DNA of 32,000 nt, taken from an uncultured Bacteriovoracaceae bacterium. GTDB taxonomy: Bacteria; Bdellovibrionota; Bacteriovoracia; Bacteriovoracales; Bacteriovoracaceae. Within the stretch, counting starts at the first letter, position 1; the number at the start of each line of letters is the position of its first letter. The notes below the pieces were generated by a model, which was not told where the DNA came from, did not search any database, and saw only the letters and a program-made list of their open reading frames with translations. Where the stretch lies: positions 822 to 32,821 of the forward strand of contig CAXGUD010000001.1 in NCBI GenBank assembly GCA_964012805.1. The letters run 5' to 3'. The position numbers were made by a program, and so were the translations under genes. This document shows positions 1,425 to 20,467 of the stretch, in pieces.

Positions 1425-1428
1425 ATCT

Positions 1429-3243: not shown

Positions 3244-3279
3244 TACCTATCTTTAGATTTTTTAAATATATAATTTAAG

Positions 3280-3311: not shown

Positions 3312-3338
3312 CTATCCGAATCTATTTTTGTCGCTCTT

Positions 3339-3859: not shown

Positions 3860-3894
3860 CCCGACTTTTTTTATTTCTTCAATAAAAAAACGGG
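3860..3894 (-). terminator. possible terminator hairpin for the peptidase/ABC transcription unit
   Basis: CCCG-U7-A ... U-A7-GUCGGG hairpin closed by 4 G:C pairs and followed on the minus strand by UUUUGG. The stem is mostly A:U and sits about 150 nt past the stop at 4046, so support is weak. Confidence 0.3.
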
Positions 3895-4045
3895 ACTTTT
3901 GTGCGAACCATGGCCTCTATTTCATGAATCATTACTTTTCTTATTAAGTTAAATCGGGCTTATTTAAAATACCTTCGGAACTTCGACTCTATTTTTATCA
4001 ATAATTTAAACAGAGAGATTCAATAGATAGAAATAATTTTGAAAT

Positions 4046-4732
4046 TTACCTTCTTCTTAAGACAGCGATCCATCTCATAACGTTTAAAAGGTCAGAAAGA
4101 GAGGATGCTAGATATGTATAAGCGCAGGCCTTAAGAATTTGATGGGCACCTTCATGCTCCAACTCTGAAAAGTCCGGTCTTTTTCTTAAAAGAGGAAGCG
4201 CTCTTTTAAAACTTGCATCTATTTCAACTGGAAGAGTCACAAAGTTAATAATTGTGTTGGATAAGAGTCCTGCAACTCCAACTATAAGAGAAAGAAGACC
4301 AATTCGGGGTGAGCGGGTCACAAGAGTTAAAATGGGAGTGATCATCATAAAGGCCCCTCCCCATTTTTGAACAATCATCCCCAAGGTCGCTAAACTTGTC
4401 CGAAGACCTAAAAGACTATACTTCGTATGATCTTGAATAGCATGCCCAACCTCATGGGCGGCCACCACCAAAGAAGTCAGATCATTTCCATGAGCGTTCT
4501 CTTTACTTAGTCTAACGGCTTTAGCAATAGGGTCATAATGGTCAGGGCCATCAATCGTTTCAACTTGAACATTATGAATTCCATTTTGAAAAAGAAGCTC
4601 CTGGGCCAAGGCATGACCATTTTGAGAAAATGTTTTTGGATGGTTCCTATATTGGTTCAAAACCTTTTTGACATAAAATTGGGGGTAAAGGATCACTAGA
4701 AAAAAAACGACCGCTAAAAGAATGTAGAGCAT
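4046..4732 (-). CDS. YugP-like membrane zinc metallopeptidase (Zn_peptidase_2 family)
   Basis: HEVGH zinc motif in AAHEVGHAIQ. Also DHYDP, VRLS and LPVEIDASFRA-type blocks, with an N-terminal TM and C-terminal TM segments, as in B. subtilis YugP. Confidence 0.8.
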   Translation of the reverse strand: MLYILLAVVFFLVILYPQFYVKKVLNQYRNHPKTFSQNGHALAQELLFQNGIHNVQVETIDGPDHYDPIAKAVRLSKENAHGNDLTSLVVAAHEVGHAIQDHTKYSLLGLRTSLATLGMIVQKWGGAFMMITPILTLVTRSPRIGLLSLIVGVAGLLSNTIINFVTLPVEIDASFKRALPLLRKRPDFSELEHEGAHQILKACAYTYLASSLSDLLNVMRWIAVLRRR

Positions 4733-5045: not shown

Positions 5046-5843
5046 TTAAACCCTCCCCAAAGAAAGACCTTTGGCCATATGATGACGGACGGCCCAAATG
5101 ACAAAAAGACCTGGAACAATCGTTAAAACCCCAGCCGCGGCCAAGAGCCCCCAGTCCTGTCCAGCAGCACCTCTCGTCCTTGTCATAACGGCGACAATGG
5201 GCTTGGCGTGTACCGAAGTTAAGGTTCTCGCTAAAAGAAGTTCTACCCAACTAAACATAAAGCAGAAAAAGGCAGCAACGCCAATTCCCGAACGAATAAG
5301 GGGGAGGAATAGCTTAATAAAAAATGACGGAAAAGAATGCCCCTCTAAATAGCTCATCTCGTCTATTTCTTTAGGGATACCGGACATAAAGCCCTCTAGA
5401 ATCCAAACACAAAGTGGGATATTAAAAAGTGTGTGGGCCAAGGCCACTCCCCATAAAGTGTCAAAGAGACCAAAGGTTGAGTAAAGTTGAAAAAAGGGAA
5501 CAAGAAAGACCGCTGGCGGTGACATTCTATTTGTTAGTAACCAAAAAAAGAGGTGCTTATCCCCCATAAAGCGGTATCTCGAAAAGGCGTATGCAGCCGG
5601 TAAAGATACCAACAAACAAAGAATTGTATTGAATAAAACGTATATAAGGGAGTTAAAATAACTCCCGTACCAACTCACATCCTGAAAAATGACCTTATAA
5701 TTCTTTAGCGTAAAGTTTTGGGGGAAAAAACTTAACTCCCCCAAGATTTCTGCATTAGATTTAAAACTCATATTGATAAGCCAATAAAGGGGAATCAATA
5801 TAAAAAGAAAGTAGAGGATTAAAAGCCCCGATCTTTTTTTCAT
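5046..5843 (-). CDS. carbohydrate ABC transporter permease (MalG/UgpE-type)
   Basis: Six hydrophobic segments and an EAA-loop-like GIPKEIDEMSYLEGHSFPSFFIKLFLPL. Its start overlaps the binding-protein stop by 4 nt (ATGA). Confidence 0.85.
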   Translation of the reverse strand: MKKRSGLLILYFLFILIPLYWLINMSFKSNAEILGELSFFPQNFTLKNYKVIFQDVSWYGSYFNSLIYVLFNTILCLLVSLPAAYAFSRYRFMGDKHLFFWLLTNRMSPPAVFLVPFFQLYSTFGLFDTLWGVALAHTLFNIPLCVWILEGFMSGIPKEIDEMSYLEGHSFPSFFIKLFLPLIRSGIGVAAFFCFMFSWVELLLARTLTSVHAKPIVAVMTRTRGAAGQDWGLLAAAGVLTIVPGLFVIWAVRHHMAKGLSLGRV

Positions 5844-7657
5844 TGAACACTCTTTTTAGGTTGAATCTTTTTTGCTTTCGCCACCTTTTTTGCCCTTTTT
5901 AAAGACCACTCTCTTAAAAGGGTTTTATAGGCAACAGTTTTCCCTTTGGGCTTTTCAACACTCATAAGAGCTTTAGGAGAACCGGGTTGCGATAACCAAA
6001 AGTCTCTTCCCTTAGGCGACTTGGCCATTTTTGGAGCACATTTTTTCATACCTATGCGCTCCAACCTTCCCATAATACGATCCATCTGATTGGCCAAACG
6101 GTCTAAGGCTTGTTGAGGCGTTTTTTCACCATTAATAGCAAGAGAAATATTTTGCCACCAAAGTTGGGCCAATCTCGGGTAATCTGGAACATTCGTACCG
6201 GTCGGTGTCCACCTTACTCTGTCAGGAGAACGGTAAAACTCAACGAGACCACCAAGCTTTGGCGCCATCTTGGTAACAACCGGTGAGTTCAAATCAGATT
6301 CACGAATAGGTGTAAGTCCTTTAATAAACTTTGTTAAAGAAACCGTTTTTGAAACACTAAACTGGGCATAAAGCCAAGCCGCTTTTCTCCTTATTAAAGG
6401 CGTGCTTTTAAGCATCGTCCAAGAACCTGCATCTTGATAACCAAGTTTCATCCCCTCTTCCCAATAAGGGCCATGAGGTGAAGGCGCCATCCTCCACTTA
6501 GGGGTTCCATCTTTATTAACAACTGGAAGACCTTTTTTGAGGCTTGCCTTTGTAAAAGCTGTGTACCAAAAAATCTGCTGGGCCACTTGGCCTTGAGAAG
6601 GCACAGGTCCTGCTTCTGAAAAAGTCATTCCAACGGCCTGTGGTGGAGCGTACTTTTTCAACCAGTCAATGTATTTCGTAAGTGCATAAACAGAAGCCGG
6701 TGCATTCGTCGCTCCCCCTCTTTCAACGCTTGCTCCTACAGGGCGGCAGTTTTCAACACGAATCCCCCACTCATCCACCGGAAGACCATTAGGAATTCCT
6801 TTACTTCCTGTTCCCGCCATAGAAAGCCAAGCGTCCGTAAAGCGCCAACCAAGGGAAGGGTCTTTTTTTCCATAATCCATATGGCCATAAACCCTCTTTC
6901 CATCAATAGTTTTAACATCATTAGTGAAAAAATTAGCTATATCTTCATAGGCAGACCAGTTTTTCGGAACACCTAACTCATAACCGTATTTTGCCTTAAA
7001 CTTCTTTTTAAGATCTGGTCTTTGAAACCAATCATGACGGAACCAATAAAGATTCGCAAATTGTTGATCCGGAAGTTGATAAAGCTTTCCATCCGGTCCT
7101 GTCGTAAAACTCTTTCCTATAAAGTCATCGATATCGAGAGTTGGAAGCGTGACATCTTTACCTTCTCCACCCATAAAGTCACTTAAGGGAACTATATAAT
7201 CCAACCGGGAGTGAGTTCCGATCAAGTCACTATCATTTACATACATATCATAAATGTTTCTACCAGTATGCATTTGAGTTTGAAGCTTTTCAATGACATC
7301 ACCTTCGCCAATAAGATCATGAGTTAACTCAATCCCCGTAAGCTCAGTAAAGGCCTTTGCTAAAGTTTTGGATTCATAAGAATGGGTATCAATACTTTCA
7401 CTAACAACTTGAATTTTCATTCCTCTAAACGGTTTCGAAGCCTTGATAAACCATTCCAACTCTTTTAGTTGATCATCTTTAGAAAGAGTTGAATCCTTAA
7501 ACTCTTTTTTAATGAGATCTTTCGCCTTTTTTAAGGCCATTTTTTCAAAGTCAGTTTGGACATCAGTCGAAGCTCCCAATCCAATAGAGAAAAGACTCAC
7601 AAACCCAATGAGTGAAAAAGTTTTTCGAAAAGACTTTAATAAATGAAAAGCTTTCAT
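5840..7657 (-). CDS. large extracellular solute-binding protein of the ABC importer (GlpV-like size class)
   Basis: 605 aa with signal peptide ...FVSLFSIGLGAS. Composition is typical of family-1 sugar SBPs (W/Y-rich, DYG/WRF blocks). It is embedded between the two permease genes with ATGA overlaps on both sides. Confidence 0.8.
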   Translation of the reverse strand: MKAFHLLKSFRKTFSLIGFVSLFSIGLGASTDVQTDFEKMALKKAKDLIKKEFKDSTLSKDDQLKELEWFIKASKPFRGMKIQVVSESIDTHSYESKTLAKAFTELTGIELTHDLIGEGDVIEKLQTQMHTGRNIYDMYVNDSDLIGTHSRLDYIVPLSDFMGGEGKDVTLPTLDIDDFIGKSFTTGPDGKLYQLPDQQFANLYWFRHDWFQRPDLKKKFKAKYGYELGVPKNWSAYEDIANFFTNDVKTIDGKRVYGHMDYGKKDPSLGWRFTDAWLSMAGTGSKGIPNGLPVDEWGIRVENCRPVGASVERGGATNAPASVYALTKYIDWLKKYAPPQAVGMTFSEAGPVPSQGQVAQQIFWYTAFTKASLKKGLPVVNKDGTPKWRMAPSPHGPYWEEGMKLGYQDAGSWTMLKSTPLIRRKAAWLYAQFSVSKTVSLTKFIKGLTPIRESDLNSPVVTKMAPKLGGLVEFYRSPDRVRWTPTGTNVPDYPRLAQLWWQNISLAINGEKTPQQALDRLANQMDRIMGRLERIGMKKCAPKMAKSPKGRDFWLSQPGSPKALMSVEKPKGKTVAYKTLLREWSLKRAKKVAKAKKIQPKKSVQ

Positions 7658-8523
7658 TCATTCTCCTTATTTAAAATCCAATTATAAAAAACAAAACTAA
7701 ACAAAAGAATAAAAAGGAAGTAGATGAGAGAGAAGGCGCTAGCAATGCCTAAATCAAATTGGCCAACAGCGAGTTTCGTTAAAAACTGACTCAAAAAAGT
7801 CGTTGAATTCCCAGGCCCTCCTCCTGTTAGAACAAAAGGCTCTGTGTAAATCATAAAGCTGTCCATAAAGCGAAGCATGACAGCGATCATCAAAACATTT
7901 TTTAATTTAGGAAGCTCAATATGACGGAAAACGGCCCAACGGTTGGCACCATCAATAGCAGCGGCCTGGTAATAGGCTTCCGGTATTGCTTTTAAACCAG
8001 AATAGGCCAACAGTACAACAAGAGGAAGCCAGTGCCAAACATCCATAACAAGAACCGTCCACCAGGCATGACTTGGATTATTAGCGTAATTGTAAGTTAA
8101 ACCCAATTGCTTTAGAGTGTGCCCTAAAAGACCTATGTCCGATCTTCCTAATATTTGCCAAATCATACCCACAACATTGTGAGGAATTAAAAGAGGCATG
8201 GCCAGAATAACCAAGCAGAAGGAAACTCTTTTTCCCTTTTTAGGCAACAGAAGAGCGACACCAACACCCAGAGGAATTTGAACAAATAAGACTAAAAAAG
8301 AAAAAAGCATTTGCCTTAGAAAAGCCTGGTGAAGCTCTCTATTTTGGAGGACTTCCCGAAACCACTCCCATCCGACAAAAACTCTTTGGTTAGGCCCCAT
8401 TATATCTTGAAATGAATAATTGACGACGGTCATTAGAGGAATAACTGCACTAAAGGCAACCATTAAAAAAACAGGAAGGACAAAAAGCCAAGCCTTTTCA
8501 TTTTTTATCTTGCCATCTTTCAA
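7654..8523 (-). CDS. carbohydrate ABC transporter permease (MalF/UgpA-type)
   Basis: Six TM segments and an EAA motif in IPEAYYQAAAIDGANRWAVFRHIELPKL. It overlaps the ATPase gene stop by 4 nt. Confidence 0.85.
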   Translation of the reverse strand: MKDGKIKNEKAWLFVLPVFLMVAFSAVIPLMTVVNYSFQDIMGPNQRVFVGWEWFREVLQNRELHQAFLRQMLFSFLVLFVQIPLGVGVALLLPKKGKRVSFCLVILAMPLLIPHNVVGMIWQILGRSDIGLLGHTLKQLGLTYNYANNPSHAWWTVLVMDVWHWLPLVVLLAYSGLKAIPEAYYQAAAIDGANRWAVFRHIELPKLKNVLMIAVMLRFMDSFMIYTEPFVLTGGGPGNSTTFLSQFLTKLAVGQFDLGIASAFSLIYFLFILLFSFVFYNWILNKENE

Positions 8524-9599
8524 AGAGACTCTCCAGGAAAAAGGGACACTTTACTCAAGGGAAACTCAACACCAACCCTGTCTCCATGGTGGATTGAATG
8601 GCGACCTTCCAAGACAGCTTTAATTGAAAAAGACTCTTGCTCCAAAGTGAGCAATTGACTTGCACCAAGATAATCCACCTTTTTCACCTTCCAAACCCAA
8701 TCATTTAAGAGACAGGGGTTTAAATTTAGACCAACATGCTGTGGCCTTATTCCTAAAGCCCCCACTCCGTCGGATTGCCTATCTAAGGTTTCAAGGTTTT
8801 TAAAATAGGATTCAATATGGGGAGTGACTTCCATAGGAGAAACTTTTCCCTTATGAACTTTGTAATTTAAAAAATTCATACCGGGAGTTCCAATAAAATG
8901 ACCAACAAAACTAGTTTTAGGGTTTTCAAAAAGGTCTCTTGGACAACCCTGCTGTAATATGCTCCCCTCCTCCATAACCACAACTTCTTCAGCAAAAGTA
9001 AGTGCCTCAGTCTGGTCGTGGGTAACATATAAAAAGCTCAATTCAAGCTCTGCATGAATCTCCTTTAACTTCTTACGGAGAAACCTTTTGAGGCGGGGGC
9101 TTACAGCGGTTAGAGGTTCATCAAAAAGTACCGCTGAGACATCTTTTCTAACAAGCCCTCTTCCAAGCGAAACGAGTTGCTTTAAATGAGGTGACAGTTC
9201 TTTTGCCCCATCCTTAAAGTGATCGGTAAGCTCCAACAATTCTCCTATTTCTTCAACTCTTTTTCTAATCTCGACAGAACCCATTCCGTAATTAAGAAGA
9301 GGAAAGGCCAAGTTTTGAAAAACAGTCATCGTATCGTAGACAACAGGGAACTGAAACACTTGCGCAATTTTCCGCTTTTGTGGTCCGAGGTTTGTCACGT
9401 CTTCTCCATCAAAAAGAACCTTACCCTCTGACGGAGTTAAAAGGCCTGACAAAATTTTAAGAAGGGTCGTTTTTCCACAGCCAGAAGGCCCTAAAAGAGC
9501 TATTCTTTTATGCTTTTCAAACATGCATTCAAGAGGTCCTAAAACCCATTTTTTCTGATCGTAGGAGTGCCTTACTCCTTGGAGTTCAATTTTTGCCAT
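8520..9599 (-). CDS. ABC transporter ATP-binding protein (MalK/UgpC-like) with degenerate signature motif
   Basis: Walker A is GPSGCGKTT, Walker B is VLFDEP and the H-loop is YVTHDQ. LSPHLKQ occupies the place of LSGGQ. A C-terminal MalK-type regulatory/TOBE-like region is present. Confidence 0.9.
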   Translation of the reverse strand: MAKIELQGVRHSYDQKKWVLGPLECMFEKHKRIALLGPSGCGKTTLLKILSGLLTPSEGKVLFDGEDVTNLGPQKRKIAQVFQFPVVYDTMTVFQNLAFPLLNYGMGSVEIRKRVEEIGELLELTDHFKDGAKELSPHLKQLVSLGRGLVRKDVSAVLFDEPLTAVSPRLKRFLRKKLKEIHAELELSFLYVTHDQTEALTFAEEVVVMEEGSILQQGCPRDLFENPKTSFVGHFIGTPGMNFLNYKVHKGKVSPMEVTPHIESYFKNLETLDRQSDGVGALGIRPQHVGLNLNPCLLNDWVWKVKKVDYLGASQLLTLEQESFSIKAVLEGRHSIHHGDRVGVEFPLSKVSLFPGESL

Positions 9600-9631
9600 A
9601 TACTGTGCCCTAGAAAATTAACCCTACTGTT

Positions 9632-10714
9632 TTAAGAAACACCACAAGGTGATTTTAGTAGTGGCCCTCCTAATTCAAAAACATAGGTCTCGCCCCAATT
9701 AGGCTTTAAATAATACACTTCACCTGGGATAAGATTTTCTATACCTCGTTTTTGTACCTGTAATTCAAGGCCATCCTCTTGCTTAAAGAAAGAAAAAGTT
9801 TCCAAACCATCAAATTCCTGATCTACCAACAGTGCCTCTAAGCAATGGTCGTCCTTTTTATTTACTATTTCTATATTTCCAGGCCTTATGCCTAAAAAGT
9901 ATTCGCCTAAGCCTACCCCTTTCAAATGAGTGGGAACAGGAAACGAAGACGCTTGCCCTAAAACAAGCTGAGACTCTTGTACACGACCTCTTAAAAGATT
10001 CATGGGAGGCTCACTCATCATCTGAGCGGTCTTAATATTGAGCGGCTTTTCAAATACATTCCGGGCCTTATCGTGCTGAAGAATCTGACCATCTTGTAAA
10101 ACAATCGTATCGCCACCCAGACTTAGGGCCTCCCTTGGATCAGCAGTTGCGTAGACAACCGTTGAAGAGCCTTTCTTCAAAATATCCTTTAATTCTTCAC
10201 GGAGTTGCTCCCTCAACTTGTAATCGAGGTTGACAAGAGGATCGTCCAAAAGAAGGAGGTCTGCATCCTTCGCCAGGGCCCTGGCAAAAGCACACCTCTG
10301 CTGCTGTCCACCTGATAACTCCGTCGGTAGACGCTTTAAAAAGTCATGTAGCCCAAATAGCTTGGCCAGCTCTTCAACTTTTTGATTGATTACGCCCTTA
10401 GCGCAACCCCTTCTTCTAAGGGGCGATGCAATATTTTCAAAAACTGTTAAGTTTGGGTAGTTAATAAACTCTTGGTATACAACAGCTATATTTCTTTTCC
10501 TTGGACTCAACCCTGATATATTCACTCCTTTTTGAAGAAGTCTTCCACCACACGGCTTCACAAGACCTGCCAAAACACGAAGTAACGTCGTTCTTTCTCG
10601 GCTTGCAGTCGAAAGAAGACCATGAAGAGTTCCCTCTTCAATTCTGAGGTTTATTCCTGCCAGGATATCTTTTCCTTCATCACGTACAGCAATATTTTCC
10701 ATCACCAAGGCCAT
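9632..10714 (-). CDS. ABC transporter ATPase-like subunit with degenerate Walker A, Walker B and H-loop but intact LSGGQ
   Basis: LSGGQQQRCAFARAL is intact. Walker A position reads LLSTASRERTT, Walker B reads LLLLDDP and the H-loop reads YATADP. A MalK-type C-terminal domain is present. Confidence 0.85.
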   Translation of the reverse strand: MALVMENIAVRDEGKDILAGINLRIEEGTLHGLLSTASRERTTLLRVLAGLVKPCGGRLLQKGVNISGLSPRKRNIAVVYQEFINYPNLTVFENIASPLRRRGCAKGVINQKVEELAKLFGLHDFLKRLPTELSGGQQQRCAFARALAKDADLLLLDDPLVNLDYKLREQLREELKDILKKGSSTVVYATADPREALSLGGDTIVLQDGQILQHDKARNVFEKPLNIKTAQMMSEPPMNLLRGRVQESQLVLGQASSFPVPTHLKGVGLGEYFLGIRPGNIEIVNKKDDHCLEALLVDQEFDGLETFSFFKQEDGLELQVQKRGIENLIPGEVYYLKPNWGETYVFELGGPLLKSPCGVS

Positions 10715-10897: not shown

Positions 10898-11263
10898 TCA
10901 GAGAGAGTCCAAAAGCTCATAGAGTTCTTCGAGAATTAAAGGCTTTTGAAGAAAGAAACTTAAAGACAAAGAAGATGCCAAAGCTTTTACTTCTTTAATA
11001 TTTCCTGAGATAAAGACAATGATAGTATTTTGATTCGGCCCATCAGAGTTCCTGATATCCACGGCCAAATTTGCACCTTTAATCACAGGCATCCTGTGGT
11101 CTAAAAAAATAACATCAAAAGCTTCATTATCAAGAAGATCTTTATATTGGTCTTTTTCACTAGCGATAGAAACTTCATATGAAGATCTGAGTTCAAGACC
11201 TTGCTTAAGCATTTCAAGAATTTCTTCTTCGTCGTCAATAATAAGTATCTTTTTTTTGCCCAT
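10898..11263 (-). CDS. single-domain response regulator (CheY-like receiver)
   Basis: KKILIIDDEEE...DVIFLDHRMP...FISG...KP receiver pattern. I prefer the ATG at 11263 because AGGTGGG lies 4 nt upstream. The GTG at 11272 used by the ORF track lies inside that Shine-Dalgarno. Confidence 0.8.
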   Translation of the reverse strand: MGKKKILIIDDEEEILEMLKQGLELRSSYEVSIASEKDQYKDLLDNEAFDVIFLDHRMPVIKGANLAVDIRNSDGPNQNTIIVFISGNIKEVKALASSLSLSFFLQKPLILEELYELLDSL

Positions 11264-11365
11264 AAAACCCACCTGGCTTACCTGACTACACCGTTTAAGT
11301 AATAAACCGATTTCTTTTTCAATTTTACCTGAAATCCAAAAAGATTGAAGGCGTTATCTTTCCAT

Positions 11366-11384: not shown

Positions 11385-11543
11385 GAACTCATTTAGAAAA
11401 CTGTTTTAGTCTCTTTCTTTCTATGGCCACCAAATAAAAACCTTTAATAATTTTATTTAAAGTCGACAAGAACTAACAATAAGGAATTGTTTTTTAGAAG
11501 TTTTAATTTCTAAAACCGGAGTTTGAAGGAAAATAAAAAAAAA

Positions 11544-12587
11544 ATGCATAGAACAATTAAATCATTCACCCTTATTGTATTTCTTATCCTGATCATACTA
11601 CAAGACAGATCAAAAGCCGCATCTGAGAAGACCGCTTCCCCCGTTTATAATACTTTTGAATACTTGCTAGGAGAATTCAAAGCAGATATTGATGGTCTTG
11701 CAAAAAAAGTTAGTAATTCGATCCTTCTTAAAGTTTCAGTTGAAGGAGATATAGATAAAACCTTTAATAGGCATGTTAGGCGGTCTTTAGAGTCTTTTCG
11801 CATTAAAGGAAAAAAGTTTCGCTTCCGCCAATGTAAGGCCTGTACTTCTTTAAGGGCCGAAACGATAGGCAATCAAATATACCTTAAAAAGGGAATTACA
11901 GAATTTAAGGATATTCAGGAAATCACTCAAAAACTTGGAACAATGTCTTACGCGGAAGCAAGTGTCGAGGATACCGGAACAAGGCTCATTTTTAAGGTTT
12001 CTTTTTTTAGCTCGCTCAATGCAGAACTTCTTTGGAGTAAAACCTATCAAATGAGGCTCGTCAGCTTTGGTGACCTCAGTTTTACAGCAGCGCTTGAAGT
12101 TAAACAGGCCTTTGGAAGAAATAGCCCTCTTCTTTTTAATGCCTCTTTTGGTGAAAAAATCTATGGTATAGGCCTTATTGACCTCAATGTCACACTAGGC
12201 TTAGCATCAGGGAAAGATAACCCCGAGCAAAAAAAAGGTAGTAGTATCGTCCTTAACCCCAATGAAGATTATGTGAACAGTTACTTTGCTATAGGGCCAA
12301 GGTTAACAGTTAACATTAACGAATTTTTTCAAATGTATTCAAACTGGGGAAGTCAGTTTATCTATGCAGGAACCGGTTTTTGCCAATACACTCGATTGAA
12401 AACAAGCAACGATACAGAAGCACCTACTGGAAAATGGGGCCTTCATATTGAAGCGGGGTATGGAGTTCATCTGGGTAGAACTTTTCTCATCACAGCAGGT
12501 TTAAACAAAGGTCTTTTTCTCAGTTCAGATGACAAAGATCAGGATTATCCTCTTCTCTTTAATATAGGATTTGGATTTAGGTTTTAA
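11544..12587 (+). CDS. outer-membrane beta-barrel protein with N-terminal periplasmic domain
   Basis: Signal peptide MHRTIKSFTLIVFLILIILQDRSKA. The C-terminal half has alternating amphipathic strands and ends ...FNIGFGFRF (terminal Phe). ATG 11544 is preferred over TTG 11523, which sits only 1 nt after GGAG. Confidence 0.6.
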   Translation: MHRTIKSFTLIVFLILIILQDRSKAASEKTASPVYNTFEYLLGEFKADIDGLAKKVSNSILLKVSVEGDIDKTFNRHVRRSLESFRIKGKKFRFRQCKACTSLRAETIGNQIYLKKGITEFKDIQEITQKLGTMSYAEASVEDTGTRLIFKVSFFSSLNAELLWSKTYQMRLVSFGDLSFTAALEVKQAFGRNSPLLFNASFGEKIYGIGLIDLNVTLGLASGKDNPEQKKGSSIVLNPNEDYVNSYFAIGPRLTVNINEFFQMYSNWGSQFIYAGTGFCQYTRLKTSNDTEAPTGKWGLHIEAGYGVHLGRTFLITAGLNKGLFLSSDDKDQDYPLLFNIGFGFRF

Positions 12588-12606
12588 TTTAAGCAAGCAT
12601 TTTTGA

Positions 12607-13302
12607 ATGAGTGTTATCCCCAAAAAGAGAAAAACCATGATGAAAAAATTATTAATTTCTTTTTTTATCCTTGGACCGTTAACTCAATTGAGTTTCTCTC
12701 AAACATCAATCAAAGAAAAAGACGGCTATATCATCATAAAAGAAGGAAAAAGCCGGGTTCAACTCAACCTTCCGGAAGAAATGAAAGGAGCTGATTCCTA
12801 CATTATAAAGGTGAACAAACTTACAGACTCCAAATCTATTAACGCCGACATTTTAAACCGATCGAAAAACCTAGGTCTTTTTAAAAAAACAAAGGATGAT
12901 CTTAAAAAAGGAGCCGTTAACGAAGCCCTTAAAATTGAATTAATCAAAAAAAGCAATGAAGGAACTTTGAGTAAAAAAGAATTAAAGCTTCTCAATGACT
13001 TAAAGGATCAAGAAAAAGATATTAACAAGAAAAAGAATTTAGATGTTATCACAAACCTTGCCATTGAGAGTTATCTTAAAAAGGCTAATGACGCCTACAA
13101 TGCGAAAAATTATAAAAAGGCCCTTCATTACTCGGAAATGGCCGATCAATTAGACTCTAAAAATTATCGAATCAAGGCCATGATAGGTTCACTTCACTAC
13201 CGATTAGGAAATGACCAACTCGCCAAAAAGTATTGGACGGATTCGCTAAAGTTCAACCCCAACCAACCGAATATTAAGCTGTACATGAGAAAAATAAGGT
13301 AA
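12607..13302 (+). CDS. secreted TPR-repeat protein
   Basis: Signal peptide MMKKLLISFFILGPLTQLSFSQ, so the true start is probably the in-frame ATG at 12637. C-terminal TPR-like repeats: AYNAKNYKKALHYSEMADQLDSKNYRIKAMIGSLHYRLGNDQLAKKYWTDSLKFNPNQ. Confidence 0.7.
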   Translation: MSVIPKKRKTMMKKLLISFFILGPLTQLSFSQTSIKEKDGYIIIKEGKSRVQLNLPEEMKGADSYIIKVNKLTDSKSINADILNRSKNLGLFKKTKDDLKKGAVNEALKIELIKKSNEGTLSKKELKLLNDLKDQEKDINKKKNLDVITNLAIESYLKKANDAYNAKNYKKALHYSEMADQLDSKNYRIKAMIGSLHYRLGNDQLAKKYWTDSLKFNPNQPNIKLYMRKIR

Positions 13303-13377
13303 TTTTTTTAAAAGTGACAAACGTTTCAATCTTAAATGACTTACCTTTTAAGACTGTTCGTTTATGAAGAGATGTAA

Positions 13378-15186
13378 ATGAGGCTTAATTTAAAATTAAA
13401 ATATTTATGGATCTTCTTAATTTTTCTTCTCTTCAGCGGGCCTAAAGGTGCTTTTACACAAGAAGCATCTCTTATGAGGAACCAACTTCAGCTCGAAAGT
13501 GAACTTAATTCACAAGTAAGAAAAGAGCTCCTCCAAGTTTTCAAAAAAGAGGAATTTATTATCTCTTCCTCTATAAAATTAAAAAGTTACAGAGTTACAA
13601 AAGTTCTGGAACAAGAAAGCCAAATAAACAAACAACCTAAAAAAAAGGGAAGTGAGCAAGAAATACTGCCAGGTTTTTACGATTCTGCCCCCTCAATAAC
13701 AAACGAAATGGCCAATGAACAAGTAAGAAAAGTATATGGCCACGAAACAAAAACTGAATTAGAAAAGGCCCAATTGAAGATTTTAGTCGATGAAAGCGTA
13801 ACAGATACCAGGCTTGACGCAGCAAAAAAATTACTCACTCAAAGGTTAACAAATAGCTTTGGAGGAAAAATTGACATCCAATTCCTCCCAGCTGTCCTCA
13901 AATCAAAATTAGCACCAGTTCCTTTTTACCAAGAGTTTACTGGATACCTAAAGGATAATATGGGACTGCTTCTCCTGTTTTTTTGTTCACTTATCTTTCT
14001 TTTTGTCCTTGCTTCTTTAATCAACCGTATAAGGCCAAAAGATCAAATGCCTCCGGTTTGGTCATATAACCCACCTATGACACCCCCAATAGATTCAATG
14101 GGAGGCTTTGGTGGCCCCCCTCCTCTTCCTGGAGGAGGTCAAAGACCTCATATAGAATTAGGCCCCAACACTCTTCCCCTACCAGGAAGTCATGAAAAAG
14201 AACTTGATGAATTAGAAATAGACAAAAAAATAAACAAATTTGTTAGCGTTATATGCAAAGAACCTTTTGTCACAAGAAAGTTTTTTCAGACCCTTGATAG
14301 AGATAATCAAAAAAGCTTTATGGCGCTTTTTACAAGTAAGAGTTCAAAAGTGGCGCTTGGAGAATTTTTTGGAGAAACACTTTTAGGACCAGAAGCAGGC
14401 GATATTGCCAGTCTGGACAATGAGATGGACCTTGAGGAAAAAGCCGAATTTTTAGAGTTTATCTCTCTAGAACATGATAGATTTAAAAACCTTATGGCCA
14501 TCAAAAATGGCCAGCGTTTTTCTATTTTATCTCTTATGAATGATAAGGAACTTCAATACGTCTTTTCGAATGAGTCCCCCAGAGATATTGCTTTTCTCCT
14601 TCACTTTCTTCCAAGAGACTCCATTTCTGGTGTTTTAAGCAGGATGGATAGCGAACAGAAAACTGAAATTATTTTAAACTTGAAAAAGTCCTCTCAATTA
14701 TCAGGAGAAGATGAAAGAGAAATTGAAGAAAGGCTTAATAAAAAAATTAATACTTTTGCCTCAAGCGCTTTTTCAACTTTCATGAGTGAAGACTCCTTAG
14801 TTGGAAGTATCTTAGATGAGTCCGATAATGCCCAAGAAATTTTAGATAGAATATCAAGTAAAGATAAAAACCTTGCTAAAAGCTTCAAATCCCACTCATT
14901 AAACTTTGATTATTTTATAGAAAATGAATTGGACTCTCTTGCAAGAATTTTTGAAACAATACCAAATGAAATGTTGGCCTTAAGCCTTATCGAATATGGT
15001 AAAGATGAAAGATCAACAATTTTAGAAGCACTTTCCCCCACAAGGAGAAAAGTCATCGCTTCTTCAATGCTCATGAACTCAAAAGCATCACACGAAGAAA
15101 TAAGAAAAGCCAAATTAGAGTCATCTAAGATTGCTCGGAAAACCTATCAATTATTACAAAGAAATAAAATGGGTAAGGCATCATGA
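13378..15186 (+). CDS. membrane-anchored FliG-like protein (periplasmic FliF/YscJ-like region, TM, Pro/Gly linker, FliG middle and C domains)
   Basis: Signal/TM at aa 1-27 and a second TM near aa 195-216. PPPLPGGG-rich linker. ESPRDIAFLLHFLPRDSISGVLSRM resembles FliG EHPQTIALILSYL. IPNEMLALSLIEYGKDERSTILEALSPTRRKVIASSM resembles the FliG C-domain pattern. Confidence 0.6.
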   Translation: MRLNLKLKYLWIFLIFLLFSGPKGAFTQEASLMRNQLQLESELNSQVRKELLQVFKKEEFIISSSIKLKSYRVTKVLEQESQINKQPKKKGSEQEILPGFYDSAPSITNEMANEQVRKVYGHETKTELEKAQLKILVDESVTDTRLDAAKKLLTQRLTNSFGGKIDIQFLPAVLKSKLAPVPFYQEFTGYLKDNMGLLLLFFCSLIFLFVLASLINRIRPKDQMPPVWSYNPPMTPPIDSMGGFGGPPPLPGGGQRPHIELGPNTLPLPGSHEKELDELEIDKKINKFVSVICKEPFVTRKFFQTLDRDNQKSFMALFTSKSSKVALGEFFGETLLGPEAGDIASLDNEMDLEEKAEFLEFISLEHDRFKNLMAIKNGQRFSILSLMNDKELQYVFSNESPRDIAFLLHFLPRDSISGVLSRMDSEQKTEIILNLKKSSQLSGEDEREIEERLNKKINTFASSAFSTFMSEDSLVGSILDESDNAQEILDRISSKDKNLAKSFKSHSLNFDYFIENELDSLARIFETIPNEMLALSLIEYGKDERSTILEALSPTRRKVIASSMLMNSKASHEEIRKAKLESSKIARKTYQLLQRNKMGKAS

Positions 15187-15240
15187 ATGAAGATAAGGAA
15201 AAAAATAGTTTTATAAAACCAAACAAAATAAAGGTCTAAA

Positions 15241-15990
15241 ATGCTAGCGAGATTACTACAACTCCCCTTCAGAATTTTGGGAATAGCCTTGATTTTGGCC
15301 GGGACCTATATTTGTGTTAAGTATGATGTGAAGCCTTCTTATTACGGTATTTACCATCCACCATCTCTTGCCCTTGTTGGTTTAGTTTTGGCCGGTGTGG
15401 CGATGTTCAGCTATAAAATTCAAACACTCTTTAGTATTTTCTTAGGTTGCTTAGGTGAATCACCCAGTTCATGCCGCTCCTATTTTCAAATCATGGAAAA
15501 AAAACTACCGGAACTTATTGACGTTTACTTTAGTGAAGGGCCCTCGGCACTAACCTCTCGCCTCCCTAACGGGTCAGAAAAAGAGCTTTGGCTTCAGGTC
15601 TTTACTAAGTTAGAAGCACAAATTTCACCAAGTGATTTGATTCAGGTTATGAATAAATATGCTTCTGACTATAAATCAAGAATCAATAGAGAAGTTTTAG
15701 TCGCCGGAACGGTAGGAAGTTTGGCCCCAACAATAGGTGTTTTAGGTACAGTTTTGGGCCTTATAAAACTTTTAGGGAACCTTCAGGACTTTTCAAGCTT
15801 GGGTTCTAATATGGCCTTGGCACTGATAACAACTCTTTATGGAATTGTTTTCAATGCGCTTCTCATAACTCCCGTTGTAGGTCGGTTAGAGGAATATAGG
15901 ACCTTTAGGCTTCAAATTTTTAGACAGATAATTTATTGGCTTGAATGCCTGGAACAAAAAAGAGCAGGCAGTGTTATAGAGCATAAATAG
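15241..15990 (+). CDS. MotA/PomA-type stator channel protein (MotA/TolQ/ExbB family)
   Basis: 4-TM MotA topology: two N-terminal TMs, a cytoplasmic loop of about 90 aa, then two C-terminal TMs. Conserved prolines occur in SLAPTIGVLGTVLGL and ALITTLYGIVFNALLITPVVGRL. Confidence 0.8.
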   Translation: MLARLLQLPFRILGIALILAGTYICVKYDVKPSYYGIYHPPSLALVGLVLAGVAMFSYKIQTLFSIFLGCLGESPSSCRSYFQIMEKKLPELIDVYFSEGPSALTSRLPNGSEKELWLQVFTKLEAQISPSDLIQVMNKYASDYKSRINREVLVAGTVGSLAPTIGVLGTVLGLIKLLGNLQDFSSLGSNMALALITTLYGIVFNALLITPVVGRLEEYRTFRLQIFRQIIYWLECLEQKRAGSVIEHK

Positions 15991-16020
15991 TCTATAAAAA
16001 ATAAGGAGTCACAACTCCAG

Positions 16021-16713
16021 ATGACCAAAAAACGTCATAAGGAAAAAGCTTCCTCTTTCGATGATGACCAAGAAAGCGGAGCTGAGAGCATTTCTAAATC
16101 TAGCTGGGCCGCATCCTATGGTGATGTTGTTAGTGTTCTTTTGTGTTTTTTTATCATCCTTTCAACAACAAGTAATATGAATTCAAAAAATGTTGAAAAA
16201 ATGAAAGAGGCCATGAGTGATGAAACACCTCAAGGTAAAAAGAAAAAGCTCAAATCAAAAGACGTCATGAAAAAACTCAAAGAGATAATTAAAATAAAAA
16301 ATCTTCAGAAGGATATCACTCTTGTAGAGGAACTTGACGGAACAAAGCTCATTATTAATGATCGTCTTCTTTTTTCTTCAGGAGGCGCAAAAATCATGCC
16401 TGAAAACATCGGAGAAATAAGAGAAATTATAAGAAGCTTTATCGACCTACCACCTCACTACCGGTTTAAAGTCGAAGGCCATACAGATGATGTTCCCATC
16501 AAAAGTAGAAAATTTCCTACAAATTGGCACCTCTCAGTTTCAAGGGCCCTTTCTCTTTTACAAGTTTTTCTTCAAGAAGGTATTTATGAAAAAAGACTAA
16601 GCTTCCATGGCTTTGCTTCATTCCAACCTCTTGCAAAAACTGAGGGGCTTCAGGGTGAAGACCTTAGAAAGGCCAGAAAAAAGAACAGAAGAGTTGTCAT
16701 TAAGGTTTACTGA
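16021..16713 (+). CDS. MotB-like stator protein with OmpA-type peptidoglycan-binding domain
   Basis: N-terminal SWAASYGDVVSVLLCFFIIL (conserved Asp before a single TM). C-terminal VEGHTDDVPI...NWHLSVSRA...NRRVVIKV OmpA/MotB domain. Confidence 0.8.
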   Translation: MTKKRHKEKASSFDDDQESGAESISKSSWAASYGDVVSVLLCFFIILSTTSNMNSKNVEKMKEAMSDETPQGKKKKLKSKDVMKKLKEIIKIKNLQKDITLVEELDGTKLIINDRLLFSSGGAKIMPENIGEIREIIRSFIDLPPHYRFKVEGHTDDVPIKSRKFPTNWHLSVSRALSLLQVFLQEGIYEKRLSFHGFASFQPLAKTEGLQGEDLRKARKKNRRVVIKVY

Positions 16714-16766
16714 CTCAACAATCATCCATTAAAATAACTTATCAACAAAGAAGATGAATTTATTTT

Positions 16767-17855
16767 ATGAAAAAGAAACACCCATTTTTTTTGGGACTTT
16801 GTATTAAGGTCCTTCTTTTTACCATAATTTCTCCTTTCGGGGAAGCTGCAACGAACTTTTTTAAAATCACAAACATTAATTCAGGGGGTGATCCACTTGT
16901 TAACGCTGCACTTTTGGAATTTGAATCCAATGTCAATCAAAATCTTCCTTCAATAGAAAGTACTGACCTGACAACAGATACAGTCAACTCCAATATCATC
17001 TCTAATAAGGGACTTGGAGTTGACTATACAAACTCCATGAAACGTTTTTTGGTAGGCTGGTCTCAAAGTGCTTCAGTTAATGTCGGAAGCAGTGAAAATA
17101 TCCTAAGTGGGGCCAAAACCGTAAAAGGTTTTGGAATGGCAACCCAATTTAACTTAGGGTTTAACCTTCAACCTTTAAAGAAACGTAAATTGATCAACCT
17201 ACCTTCATTTTGGGGTCTCGACCTTAATAACTCAAAAATTTTTATGGGCCTAATGACCGGACGAACAAGCCAAAAAGTAAGTGGTTATACACTCGGCTTC
17301 GAAATTTTTACCGCCAACCTCCGTATTATGACGAAGCTCAAAAAAGCTGAAGACTTCAAAAGCTACTTTTTTAAGTGGGGTGGTATTGACTTAAGCACAG
17401 GGCTCGAAACTAATAAAACAGCCCTCTCAGTCAGTGTGCCAAGAAATGAGTCAATTACGGCTTCCAATTCATACAAAACAACTTTTGACGGCATAGTTGG
17501 CTTTAAGGTCGATTCCTCAAGTTTTAGTATTCCTCTTGAAGTCTCAGCCAGTGCAACCTTCTTTTCTTTTATCGATTTGTTTTGGGGCCTTGGTACTGAT
17601 TTAAACTTTGGGTATGGAAGGGGCTCGAGTTTTTCAGACTCTAATGTCTTGATCTTTGATAACTTAAATAACCAAGTTGGAACTGCTGACGCCGAGTTCA
17701 ATGTAGGCTCAACAGGGTCCCCCTCAATCTTGAATGCTCGGTGGTTTGCTGGGACCCAAGTTAACCTATGGAAAATGAAAGTTTCACTTCAAGCACAACA
17801 TTCTATGATCCACGGGATTTGGGGCTTTGGAGGTAATTTTAACTTCATTTTTTAA
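16767..17855 (+). CDS. outer-membrane beta-barrel protein
   Basis: Signal peptide MKKKHPFFLGLCIKVLLFTIISPFGEA. Gly/Ser/Asn-rich alternating strands throughout, ending ...GGNFNFIF. Confidence 0.6.
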   Translation: MKKKHPFFLGLCIKVLLFTIISPFGEAATNFFKITNINSGGDPLVNAALLEFESNVNQNLPSIESTDLTTDTVNSNIISNKGLGVDYTNSMKRFLVGWSQSASVNVGSSENILSGAKTVKGFGMATQFNLGFNLQPLKKRKLINLPSFWGLDLNNSKIFMGLMTGRTSQKVSGYTLGFEIFTANLRIMTKLKKAEDFKSYFFKWGGIDLSTGLETNKTALSVSVPRNESITASNSYKTTFDGIVGFKVDSSSFSIPLEVSASATFFSFIDLFWGLGTDLNFGYGRGSSFSDSNVLIFDNLNNQVGTADAEFNVGSTGSPSILNARWFAGTQVNLWKMKVSLQAQHSMIHGIWGFGGNFNFIF

Positions 17856-17872: not shown

Positions 17873-20467
17873 TTAGATACTTGGAATAATTAAAGAAAAG
17901 GTTGTCCCCTCTCCTTCCTTCGTATCAATTTCGATTCTGCCGCCTAGACTTTCAATATTTTTAAGGACGACATCCATTCCCACTCCCCTACCGGATATCT
18001 CAGTTACATTACTCGCCGTCGAAAAGCCTGGTTTAAAAATGAGTTCTGTCTTTTCTTTTTCATTTAAAAAGTCTTTCGTGGAATCTATGAGACCTTTTTC
18101 TATGGCCTTATTATAAACATCTTCACCATTGATTCCCCGGCCATCATCTTTCAAAGTTAGAATAATATCAGGTCTTTTACGGGTTAGACTAACTTCTATA
18201 TTTCCACTTTTTTCAATTCCATGAGCTATACTATTATTGATAAGATGGATAACAGATTCCCTTATAATTTTTGCATTTTTTCTGTCAAAAAGGGCCTCTA
18301 CTCCACTTACTTTAAAAGATACATTTTTTTCAAGTTTTCTTGCTTCTCTAAAAACTGTTGGCTTTAACTTCAACAATTCTCCTTTTAATTCACTCATCAT
18401 GAGGTTTGCAAAAATTCTTAAAACGGCTTTTGCAGAAGTCATCTCTTTAGCTGAATGAAGAGCTACTTCAAATTTATTTTTTGGGACCTCGATAAACTCC
18501 TCAGACCCATCACTTTCAGAGGAAAGAAACTCTTCCCCAAAAACTTCTTGCGCGCTCTCTTTATAAAAAGTAAGGAGTTCCGTGAGCATTTCTTTAGTCC
18601 GTTCTATCCCATTTTTTTCATAATCAGTTTCAAATCCATGAACTTTATTACTTAATGACTCCAAATTAAAGAACCTTGAACTTCCTTTAATTGTGTGCAG
18701 ACTTCTTTTGACCCCTTCCTCATCACCCCACTCTTCCAATGTTTCAAAAACCTCTTTAATAAAAACTCTAAATTCACTTTTAGTATTGGAAACAATTTCC
18801 TGGAGGACTTGAATCCTGTATTCAGCTTTTTCCTGAGAAACTCTAACAGCTTCTTTTAACTTTTCCTCCTCAGTTATGTCCTCAATAATAAACATAATTC
18901 TTCTTACGATTTCTTGATCATCAATAATAGGACTTAATTGAATTTTTACAATCTTCTCATCTCCGTTTTCCATTTTTAAATTAGTCATCTTGGGAATAAC
19001 ATCTTGCATACTATCAAATTGGAAAATATCCATGTTGATAGAAATACTAAAGACAAAGGCCATTTTTTCTCTAAATTCTTGATTAAAAAGCTCCGCACAT
19101 ACATTTTTCCCTACAATATCTACACCAAATATTTCCGCAGAGTATTTTGAGACAGGAAAAATTACTTTATAAGATTCATCCACAGAAAAAACAGCTTGGC
19201 GCATATTATTCAATATATCTTTTGTCTCATTCAATGAGGAAAAGAGTTCATTTGTCCTTGCTTTAACTTTATTTTCCAAACCCAAATTTGTTTTTTCAAT
19301 TTTACGATAGAGCAATTTAAGTTTATGGTTAGCATCATTTAACTCTTCCGCCCTAATTGCGATGTCATCCCTTTGTAATTTTATATACTCTGCAAAACCA
19401 AAGGACAGAACAATAAGCTTGAGAGAAGTACCTAATAAAAGAGAGTTATCAATGAAGAGGTAAGGTCCAAGAACTTTAAATTTAAATAATATCTGGACAA
19501 TAACAAACAGAACAAAAATATTAAGCGATATGAAAAAATATTTAGCAGTAACACTACCCTTCCTTAATTCATCGTAGGAAAACCAGAATGAAAAAATTAT
19601 GATGGTTGAAAAATAAAAATAAGAAAAGCCTAGGCCGGCCGTAATGGGAGTAAAGAGGCAAACAAAGGTCAGGACGAGTCCTCCCTTTATAAAATTGTTG
19701 CAAAAGTGCAGTAGTTTTTCTCTATCCAGATTTATATAACTTTTTCCAAAAATCAATAAAGTGACGCCAGTTAGGGCAACTAAGCTATTTTGGCCTTGAC
19801 CAGATAACCAGGAACCTTTAAGAAAAGAAACAAATACCATAAGCGTTAATGATAAAACAAAGGCATAAAGAGAAAAAAGAATATAGTTAATATAATTGGA
19901 GGTTAAATAATTGAAAATATTATAAATTATTAATAAAATAATAACTCCATAAAAAAATGAATATAAAGTTTTTTCTTCAAATTGTTTTTCATAGAAAGAA
20001 TCAATCTTTAAAATAGAGATGGGCAACTTTACTTTTTCTTTAAACCTATTACTTTTAAGAACTTGGATAAGCACTTCACTTGTATTTGATTTAATTTTAA
20101 AACTAGGATGTCTATTTTTTAGCCTGAAAAGCATAGAATTATCAGGAGACCAAACCTCAGTTCCTCCTGAAGCTGACTTATAGTAGAATTTAAAGTTCTG
20201 AAAATAGCTATTGTTTATAGTAATAACCTTTTCGAAAGGCCGCTTGGAAATTTTAACCTTTATGTATAGGTCTTTTTTAAAATCATTTAAGATATAGGAG
20301 TCTTCGATGGATTTAACTTTTTGAATATTATTTGGTTTAATAAGTCCTTTGACACCTTCTTCTAACGAACCCAAATATTGAAAAGCCTCGACTTCATATC
20401 CAGAACCAGAAAAACTATTTCCCATGAATAAAGAAATAAAAAATAGAAATGTTATTACTGTTCTCAA
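17873..20467 (-). CDS. sensor kinase: 7TMR-DISM extracellular and 7TM domains, coiled coil, PAS-like, Hpt and CheA-type ATPase domains
   Basis: TTG start, signal peptide, periplasmic domain of about 150 aa, then seven hydrophobic helices (aa about 170-365). Hpt motif LHTIKGSSRFFNLESLSNKVHGFE. CheA-like N box IHLINNSIAHGIEK, DDGRGI and GRGVGMDVVLKNIESLGGRIEIDTKEGEGTTF. Confidence 0.8.
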   Translation of the reverse strand: MRTVITFLFFISLFMGNSFSGSGYEVEAFQYLGSLEEGVKGLIKPNNIQKVKSIEDSYILNDFKKDLYIKVKISKRPFEKVITINNSYFQNFKFYYKSASGGTEVWSPDNSMLFRLKNRHPSFKIKSNTSEVLIQVLKSNRFKEKVKLPISILKIDSFYEKQFEEKTLYSFFYGVIILLIIYNIFNYLTSNYINYILFSLYAFVLSLTLMVFVSFLKGSWLSGQGQNSLVALTGVTLLIFGKSYINLDREKLLHFCNNFIKGGLVLTFVCLFTPITAGLGFSYFYFSTIIIFSFWFSYDELRKGSVTAKYFFISLNIFVLFVIVQILFKFKVLGPYLFIDNSLLLGTSLKLIVLSFGFAEYIKLQRDDIAIRAEELNDANHKLKLLYRKIEKTNLGLENKVKARTNELFSSLNETKDILNNMRQAVFSVDESYKVIFPVSKYSAEIFGVDIVGKNVCAELFNQEFREKMAFVFSISINMDIFQFDSMQDVIPKMTNLKMENGDEKIVKIQLSPIIDDQEIVRRIMFIIEDITEEEKLKEAVRVSQEKAEYRIQVLQEIVSNTKSEFRVFIKEVFETLEEWGDEEGVKRSLHTIKGSSRFFNLESLSNKVHGFETDYEKNGIERTKEMLTELLTFYKESAQEVFGEEFLSSESDGSEEFIEVPKNKFEVALHSAKEMTSAKAVLRIFANLMMSELKGELLKLKPTVFREARKLEKNVSFKVSGVEALFDRKNAKIIRESVIHLINNSIAHGIEKSGNIEVSLTRKRPDIILTLKDDGRGINGEDVYNKAIEKGLIDSTKDFLNEKEKTELIFKPGFSTASNVTEISGRGVGMDVVLKNIESLGGRIEIDTKEGEGTTFSLIIPSI

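Follow-up and report, generated by a model that had tools for sequence, protein, structure and literature searches.

The window analysed here is a 32,000-nucleotide stretch of DNA from an uncultured Bacteriovoracaceae bacterium (assembly GCA_964012805.1, contig CAXGUD010000001.1, positions 822 to 32,821), and our subject is a block of six open reading frames (ORFs) within it that encodes a flagellar-type stator pair beside a membrane-anchored, FliG-like protein. An earlier note made from the DNA alone had described six closely packed genes on one strand, and this layout is borne out: the ORFs occupy positions 11523-17855 of the + strand and are separated, in order, by 19, 75, 54, 30, and 53 nucleotides. 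Gene 1 (11523..12587; 354 amino acids from TTG 11523) encodes a secreted protein that may be an outer-membrane partner of a motor. It is followed by gene 2 (12607..13302; 231 amino acids), whose secreted product has a C-terminal tetratricopeptide repeat (TPR) region at about residues 150-225, and by gene 3 (13378..15186; 602 amino acids), the proposed rotor protein. The A and B subunits of the stator, of MotA/PomA type and MotB type, are encoded by gene 4 (15241..15990; 249 amino acids) and gene 5 (16021..16713; 230 amino acids). Gene 6 (16767..17855; 362 amino acids) specifies a lineage-specific secreted or surface protein of the Lsa36 family.

Gene 3 is the central element. What had been described as a membrane-anchored FliG element next to its own stator is upheld and can be sharpened to a fusion in which a FliF-like ring-building motif (RBM3), a transmembrane helix, and a FliG-like region share one polypeptide. 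Residues 28-175 (13459..13902) are predicted by AlphaFold2 and Foldseek to form a periplasmic domain resembling the RBM3/β-collar of FliF. Residues 196-277 (13963..14208) comprise, by hydropathy, a transmembrane helix, called at 197-215 or at about 197-218, and then a linker, and residues 278-602 (14209..15183) make up the FliG-like region, recognized through Pfam, Protein Data Bank (PDB), and Foldseek matches and predicted to be cytoplasmic.

Domains and topology of the gene 3 protein

Profile searches place gene 3 in the FliG family, as had been supposed. In Pfam, FliG_M (PF14841; residues 391-462, nucleotides 14548-14763, + strand) scores 43.1 bits against a cut-off of 25, and FliG_C (PF01706; residues 491-588, nucleotides 14848-15141, + strand) scores 33.4 bits against 23.3; MgtE_N is also above its cut-off (32 bits versus 25.9). 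The protein stays below the equivalog cut-offs of the NCBIfam FliG models TIGR00207 (44.4 versus 226.7 bits) and NF004260 (26.5 versus 550 bits). Its sequence matches in the PDB are crystal structures of FliG MC domains (E 6e-8). The AlphaFold2 model of the whole protein is poor (predicted local distance difference test score, pLDDT, 57); it folds the chain ahead of the transmembrane helix into an alpha-beta-beta-alpha-beta unit and the chain behind that helix into helices only. When this model was compared with the PDB by Foldseek, all matches with E ≤0.1 (the top 31) were FliG or FliF. The alignment with full-length FliG spans 311-335 columns (3hjl, E 4.9e-7), and the last domain of the model superposes on FliG_C of the MotAB-bound complex 8ucs_H with a TM-score of 0.78 and a root-mean-square deviation of 1.7 Å. 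Judged by these profiles and by the predicted fold, the cytoplasmic part of gene 3 is FliG-like, with counterparts of the FliG N, M, and C domains.

Conservation was assessed in 22 diverse family members at 17-26% identity to gene 3, with one closer protein (P0004) at 64%. At least 90% of members keep E40, L51, E80, F100, Y120, R300, L306, and R556. R556 (nucleotides 15043-15045) aligns with the Arg of the FliG torque helix, R281 in E. coli FliG. The FliM-binding EHPQR motif reads ESPRD in gene 3, compared with EHPQT in T. maritima, and this position is variable across the 22 members.

One domain of ~150 amino acids makes up the periplasmic part. Modelled alone with a 19-sequence alignment, residues 28-175 adopt an alpha-beta-beta-alpha-beta fold with a long β-hairpin (AlphaFold2, pLDDT 79.4, core blocks mostly >90). 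The top 18 Foldseek matches of this model in the PDB are all RBM3/collar regions of the FliF MS ring (E 9e-7 to 2.4e-4), and match 19 is SpoIIIAG, another ring-building-motif protein with a β insertion. The best PDB sequence-profile match of the domain is FliF 245-285, a weak one (E 0.045). On the strength of the model, the domain has a FliF-RBM3-like fold, and we do not claim membership of the FliF family as proven. An LPGF motif (residues 97-100, nucleotides 13666-13677) lies at the hairpin tip, in an insertion modelled with low confidence; its P98 and G99 are invariant across the 22 diverse members, and F100 is among the residues listed above.

Gene 3 begins with a signal-like hydrophobic segment, as do 97 of 101 family members. 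Lys and Arg residues flanking the internal helix number three after it and one before it in gene 3; across the family, 81 of 101 members have more after the helix, with means of 3.9 versus 1.8. By the positive-inside rule, this enrichment puts the FliG-like region in the cytoplasm and the RBM3-like domain in the periplasm, a predicted topology in which the FliG-like region faces the cytoplasmic domain of MotA. The linker between helix and FliG-like region (residues 219-277, nucleotides 14032-14208) is a segment of low complexity rich in Pro (15 of its 59 residues) and Gly (9); across the family, the corresponding segment is likewise of low complexity and varies in length.

The stator pair and a recurring gene cassette

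Gene 4 had been read as a four-helix MotA-type channel and gene 5 as a MotB protein with an OmpA-type domain, and both assignments stand. Gene 4 matches MotA_ExbB in Pfam (E 2.6e-19) and contains four hydrophobic helices. Among the NCBIfam models, MotA, MotP, and PomA match at E 2e-18 to 1.5e-15, versus 8e-7 for TolQ and 1e-3 for ExbB, and the PDB matches are MotA/PomA structures. Gene 4 and its counterparts from nine other loci were compared with PomA and E. coli MotA; they align with PomA over their full length, and the cytoplasmic domain between the second and third transmembrane helices is equal in length. P163 and P211 of gene 4 align with the conserved Pro residues of PomA helices 3 and 4 and correspond, by established numbering, to P173 and P222 of the E. 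coli protein. T170, T197, and T198 occupy the positions of the PomA Thr triad (T158, T185, T186). Hu et al. report this triad in all Na+-driven stators and its partial replacement by Ala in H+ stators (PMC10374538); its presence in this marine organism hints at a stator coupled to Na+.

Gene 5 matches MotB_plug (42.6 bits, E 4.6e-11) and OmpA (37.4 bits, E 3.3e-9) in Pfam and the MotD, MotB, and MotS models of NCBIfam (E 4e-35 to 2e-22). It has a single transmembrane helix, at the start of which lies the channel residue Asp35 (nucleotides 16123-16125), within SYGDVVSVLL. Both proteins fall below every NCBIfam equivalog cut-off: the best such match of gene 4 reaches 66 bits against 340, and gene 5 reaches 121.7 bits against 283. 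By these sequence criteria, genes 4 and 5 are flagellar-type stator proteins and not orthologues of a typed stator.

The extent of the gene 3 family was uncovered by an exhaustive profile search, whereas word-indexed single-protein and profile searches gave close relatives only. At E ≤1e-3, the exhaustive search yielded 276 proteins, and long fusion proteins scored above canonical FliG (~335 amino acids). When the 150 best-scoring representatives of clusters formed at 50% identity are taken, 107 have at least 480 amino acids, and at least 88 combine a PG[FLYWM] motif with an internal transmembrane helix; read from these features, the fusion architecture is common to at least about 100 protein clusters at 50% identity. 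Family members are annotated only as 'hypothetical' or as 'FliG C-terminal domain-containing protein'; NCBI gives the latter name, with the label Bdellovibrionota bacterium, to a fragment of the gene 3 protein. The identified carriers, with names available for two clusters, are metagenome-assembled genomes (MAGs) of Bdellovibrionota or 'Deltaproteobacteria', and the exact gene 3 protein is recorded in Tara Oceans and other marine assemblies.

We examined twelve loci, namely the window and L001-L011. The fusion gene adjoins motA-motB in all twelve. The order gene 1-TPR-fusion-motA-motB is found in the window, L001-L006, L008, and L009, that is, in every locus with upstream DNA on its contig (9/12). 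L001 belongs to a Halobacteriovoraceae MAG that keeps this gene order and, at 87% identity, is closer to the window than any other genome matched. L002-L005 were found through four distant MotA homologues (33-35% identity), and BLASTP supports all five proteins in them; two of these loci lie on contigs of 1.3 and 1.9 Mb. L006-L010 were reached from distant fusion proteins, and of these L006, L008, and L009 have the standard order, L006 beside rpoBC and ribosomal protein genes. No flagellar genes, FliM and FliN domains included, occur within ~10 kb of the cassette in any of the twelve loci, and their genomic neighbourhoods are otherwise unrelated to each other. Because the gene order recurs in distant genomes, the cassette is not a chance arrangement.

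Two loci depart from the standard order. In L007 (664-4821), the genes run motA-motB-fusion, followed by a gene for a 359-amino-acid protein, and the MotA protein is short (215 amino acids), its first helix missing in the alignment. L010 (93-7070) contains the fusion gene, a gene for a 374-amino-acid protein, a TPR gene, motA, a motB with a C-terminal TPR extension (372 amino acids), and a PorP/SprF- or PorV-like gene. The last of these, an outer-membrane gene by its sequence, hints, and only hints, that the carrier comes from a lineage bearing a type IX secretion system (T9SS). About 5 kb from the cassette of L002, a DUF1577 protein (16399-17532, - strand) without an NCBIfam match gives a further taxonomic hint and nothing beyond that; this family was first described from Leptospira.

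Putative secreted partners and the surroundings of the block

The likely true start of gene 1 is ATG 11544, and the L001 homologue begins at the corresponding Met. The protein has a signal-like N-terminus, a conserved N-terminal domain, and a Gly-rich, β-type C-terminal half that ends in GFGFRF. It has no relative in Pfam, NCBIfam, or the PDB, a profile search included, and its matches to outer-membrane β-barrel models are sub-threshold (18.9 and 17.3 bits). Homologues occupy the same position in L002-L006, L008, and L009, with 15-28% identity in alignments; BLASTP, run for those of L002-L005, gave E 2e-21 to 3e-33. Across this family, C104-x-x-C107 (nucleotides 11832-11843), K123, and G124 of the N-terminal domain are invariant, RAE follows the CxxC in most members, and the C-terminal half ends in an aromatic residue. 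The CxxC suggests a disulfide or a metal site. The 374-amino-acid protein of L010 is a tentative homologue (hhalign probability 66%), and this putative homologue is without the cysteines. The 359-amino-acid protein of L007 was also considered as a homologue and set aside, having no detectable relation to gene 1.

The secreted TPR protein that had been proposed for gene 2 is supported by a TPR_2 match just under the cut-off (24.8 bits, E 2e-5), by TPR_19, and by a signal-like N-terminus. In L002-L005 its TPR part recurs at the corresponding place (E 9e-7 to 9e-14), and TPR genes fill the matching slot in L006, L008, L009, and L010.

Genes 1 and 6 had both been called outer-membrane β-barrels, a claim that proved weaker than stated. 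Domain calls gave no barrel match for gene 6, which instead belongs near the NCBIfam LIC_11975/Lsa36 family (71.6 bits versus a cut-off of 90, E 5.5e-20). Both proteins end in an aromatic residue, and together with the sub-threshold matches of gene 1 these C-terminal aromatics point weakly to a putative outer-membrane placing. Gene 6 is found after motB only in close relatives: L001, where it was recognized by ORF position and size (362 amino acids), and L011 (PF28316 Lsa36; 3246-4328). It is absent from L002-L010 and unlike the extra genes of L007 and L010. A family named after a Leptospira surface adhesin here appears in a Bdellovibrionota genome, the sixth gene being kept after motB in relatives with identities as low as 64%.

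Downstream, an 864-amino-acid kinase gene (17873-20467, - strand) converges on the block, and upstream, a single-domain receiver (10898-11272, - strand) is transcribed away from it, just as the earlier note had reported. The kinase combines a 7TMR-DISM module of seven helices with PAS and Hpt domains and an ATPase of CheA-like type, and no CheW-like or dimerisation domain was detected in it by Pfam and NCBIfam domain calls. An 869-amino-acid ORF, near the kinase in size, adjoins the cassette in L001, and a hydrolase stands in its place in L011. The kinase is conserved only in L001, the nearest relative, with no sign that it or the receiver is a member of the module. Since gene 6 occurs only in close relatives and the kinase is replaced in L011, the conserved unit consists of genes 1-5. 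Of the six-gene block first described, these five are what recurs in many distant relatives. Gene 6 is an uncertain member of the same machine.

The absence of fliM/fliN, export-gate, rod, hook, and filament genes, already remarked from the sequence, was confirmed among window ORFs of at least 100 amino acids and extends 10 kb past the left end. The remaining genes of the window are an ABC transporter operon and assorted enzymes. The operon (5046-10714, - strand), an importer directly upstream of the receiver, encodes two separate ATPases, two permeases, and a 605-amino-acid solute-binding protein. ORFs 282-1424 and 24510-25928 are without a Pfam family, Rfam and tRNA scans returned no Rfam family or tRNA in the window, and promoter and terminator scans did not rise above shuffled expectation. 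The G+C content is about 35%, with lower values (26-33%) at 1-4000 and 30001-31000 versus 35-45% elsewhere. A further 7TMR-DISM kinase lies ~13 kb to the left of the window start (L012).

Interpretation and competing explanations

Taken together, we think it somewhat probable that genes 1-5 make up a self-contained, ion-driven rotor-stator module that descends from the flagellar motor or is akin to it and is not part of a flagellum. The likeness to the flagellar rotor and its MotAB/PomAB stators extends, by prediction, to the RBM3/collar-like fold, the FliG N/M/C-like region, and the Arg equivalent to R281; to a four-helix MotA with a cytoplasmic domain of PomA length and two conserved Pro residues; and to a MotB with its Asp, plug, and OmpA domain. 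The module differs from the flagellum in that its rotor ring and FliG would be one polypeptide. Gene 3 has a signal peptide and one transmembrane helix, whereas FliF has two, and it is missing RBM1 and RBM2; the FliF MS ring is built from about 33-34 subunits. Also unlike the flagellum, the module is without nearby FliM/FliN, export, rod, hook, and filament genes and without conserved EHPQR or torque-helix acids; its proteins stay below the equivalog thresholds for FliG, MotA, and MotB, and its constant companions, the gene 1 product and the TPR protein, are two unrelated secreted proteins.

The closest precedent, by analogy, is the FliF-FliG fusion of Chlamydiaceae, a protein of ~330 amino acids with two transmembrane helices, an RBM2-like motif plus one unassigned RBM, and a FliG_M-like domain only; its proposed partner is the type III secretion system and not MotAB (Bergeron 2016, PMC4768692). 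Both proteins would join periplasmic ring-building motif(s), a membrane anchor, and a FliG-like cytoplasmic domain outside a complete flagellum. Gene 3 differs in its RBM3/collar-like domain, its full set of FliG domains, and the adjacent motAB, a distinction drawn from the published description of the chlamydial protein and not from its sequence.

A second group for comparison is formed by AglRQS-Glt, GldLM/T9SS, Tol-Pal, ExbBD-TonB, and Zorya. As in these systems, a MotA/ExbB-family ion motor is co-encoded with a periplasmic TPR protein and putative outer-membrane proteins and possibly energises an envelope process (PMC12505986). Their A subunits, unlike gene 4, are of TolQ/ExbB/GldL/ZorA type, and they have no FliG-type partner, whereas the module pairs a MotA/PomA-like subunit with a FliG-like one; the B subunits of Tol/Ton/Agl-type motors also lack the plug and OmpA domain, both of which are present in gene 5. 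A survey of MotAB diversity separates flagellar from generic stators and does not discuss a non-flagellar FliG partner (PMC12505986); the stator of the module appears to share the flagellar-stator features of that survey. We found no description of this cassette in the literature.

Several observations weigh against a self-contained rotor-stator module. The earlier note had proposed a search for FliF, and its outcome is divided: the predicted fold is RBM3/β-collar-like, but gene 3 has no match to the Pfam (YscJ_FliF, YscJ_FliF_C) or NCBIfam models of FliF at E ≤0.1, and the Foldseek TM-scores to FliF are modest (0.35-0.48). The acids of the FliG torque helix are not kept, S563 and M564 standing at the positions of E. 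coli D288 and D289. On the stator side, the charges that face FliG are not kept either: the sites of PomA R88/K89 and E96/E97 are S/E and T/S in the window and variable across the MotA proteins of the module (the FliG-facing charged residues of E. coli MotA are R90 and E98). Any contact between rotor and stator would use a different interface. Finally, the carriers come from usually flagellated groups, and a link to a true flagellum is possible.

That last point leads to the explanation that survives best among the rivals, although we judge it unlikely, in which the cassette is an accessory of the ordinary flagellum. An extra membrane ring, dedicated stator paralogues, and a TPR/outer-membrane scaffold would then sit around or beside the basal body, recruiting stators or serving a sheathed flagellum. 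MotX/MotY, PflA/PflB, the spirochaete collar, and the E-ring are parallels for such accessories. Consistent with this, cultured Bdellovibrio-like organisms, as is also well established, have a sheathed polar flagellum and several motAB pairs (PMC11323537), and TPR proteins and membrane-anchored proteins with ARM/MgtE_N-like domains are known as stator scaffolds (PMC13023049). However, all twelve loci lie away from flagellar genes, and a ring-forming FliF domain with all three FliG domains on one protein looks like a rotor and not a scaffold. The E-ring or collar-base proteins FlbB, FlgY, and MotE are small; they are anchored at the N-terminus and carry an ARM-like head in the periplasm, and an E-ring is present in Bdellovibrio motors (PMC13023049). 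They resemble gene 3 in being membrane-anchored and stator-associated and in having an MgtE_N/FliG ARM-like domain; the FliG-like region of gene 3, in contrast to their periplasmic heads, follows the transmembrane helix, is predicted to be cytoplasmic, and includes FliG_C, while the periplasmic part is RBM3-like. The PorP/SprF- or PorV-like gene of L010 also argues against a flagellar accessory, as such genes are typical of T9SS, in usually non-flagellated lineages; this is a hint, the taxonomy of L010 being read from that gene alone.

The loss of the canonical charge pairs between rotor and stator, the unconserved EHPQR motif, and the MgtE_N match above cut-off would all fit a second and distinctly improbable alternative in which the complex is not a rotary machine. 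The stator-like proteins would act as a MotAB-like gated ion channel or force generator, the FliG/MgtE_N-like part of gene 3 would be regulatory or sensing, as in MgtE, or a static dock, and the whole would serve as a Tol-Pal- or Ton-like device for envelope signalling or stress. Other 5:2 motors do work with non-FliG partners, TPR proteins, or outer-membrane components (PMC12505986). Against this stand a stator of flagellar and not of Tol/Exb type, a match that covers the torque domain FliG_C with the R281-equivalent Arg kept, and a periplasmic domain with the ring-forming FliF RBM3 fold.

A decaying remnant of a flagellar locus, suggested by flagellar-type parts without the rest of a flagellum, or a Zorya-like anti-phage system, suggested by ZorB models that match gene 5 (E 1.7e-18), is very improbable: all ORFs are intact, the large family keeps its architecture and gene order down to ~20% identity, the ZorA match is negligible (E 0.0076, 13 bits), no ZorC/D/E-type genes were found, and the loci lie among housekeeping genes such as the rpoBC and ribosomal protein genes of L006. 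When the six proteins were scanned for defence systems, the ZorB matches were generic to the MotB fold, the one other match was a marginal HEC-01B match on gene 2 (E 0.0094), and Zorya or another defence system was rejected.

Returning to the self-contained module, a more specific version is possible, though we stop short of calling it probable: an autonomous, non-flagellar rotary nanomachine with a one-polypeptide MS-ring/FliG rotor and flagellar-type, possibly Na+-driven stators, which would transmit torque through a periplasmic ring to the TPR protein and gene 1 and so drive gliding, the movement of surface proteins, interaction with prey, or some other task at the envelope or surface. For the self-contained module in general, the domain identities, the predicted topology, the family size, and the gene linkage described above lead us to infer ring formation, stator contact, rotation, ion type, and output along the following lines. 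Gene 3 would be exported by its signal peptide, and its RBM3/β-collar-like domain would oligomerise into a periplasmic ring on the inner membrane. Below the membrane, this ring would hold the covalently attached FliG-like domains, in place of the joint between the FliF C-terminus and the FliG N-terminus in the flagellum. Units of MotA5B2 type, formed by genes 4 and 5, would be anchored to peptidoglycan by the OmpA domain and conduct ions past Asp35, Na+ being the ion that the Thr triad suggests. The cytoplasmic domain of MotA would push the FliG_C-like domain, and the ring would turn. With neither a FliM/FliN switch nor an export gate or rod in the module, the output would have to leave through the periplasmic ring. 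More speculatively, the invariant LPGF tip of the hairpin might pass it to the gene 1 product, to the TPR protein, or to both, and these in turn to the outer membrane or the surface. The envelope-spanning motor module of the earlier note is sustained as a non-canonical motor module, while its span across the envelope depends on the putative placing of the would-be barrels, whose matches are sub-threshold. The autonomous nanomachine could have arisen from the flagellar motor by streamlining, or it could be a relative, still extant, of a rotor-stator core that existed before the union with type III export.

To our knowledge, FliG-type rotors with MotAB-type stators are known only from flagella, and the other 5:2 motors (Tol, Ton, Agl, GldLM, Zorya) use a different partner. 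If the module is what we propose, the torque-generating core of the flagellum can exist, and be selected, alone. It would also offer a far simpler system for rotor-stator coupling, with a single rotor gene and neither switch nor export gate. It would further inform views on the evolutionary assembly of the flagellar motor and on the ways in which uncultured Bdellovibrionota-like bacteria move or work on their envelope.

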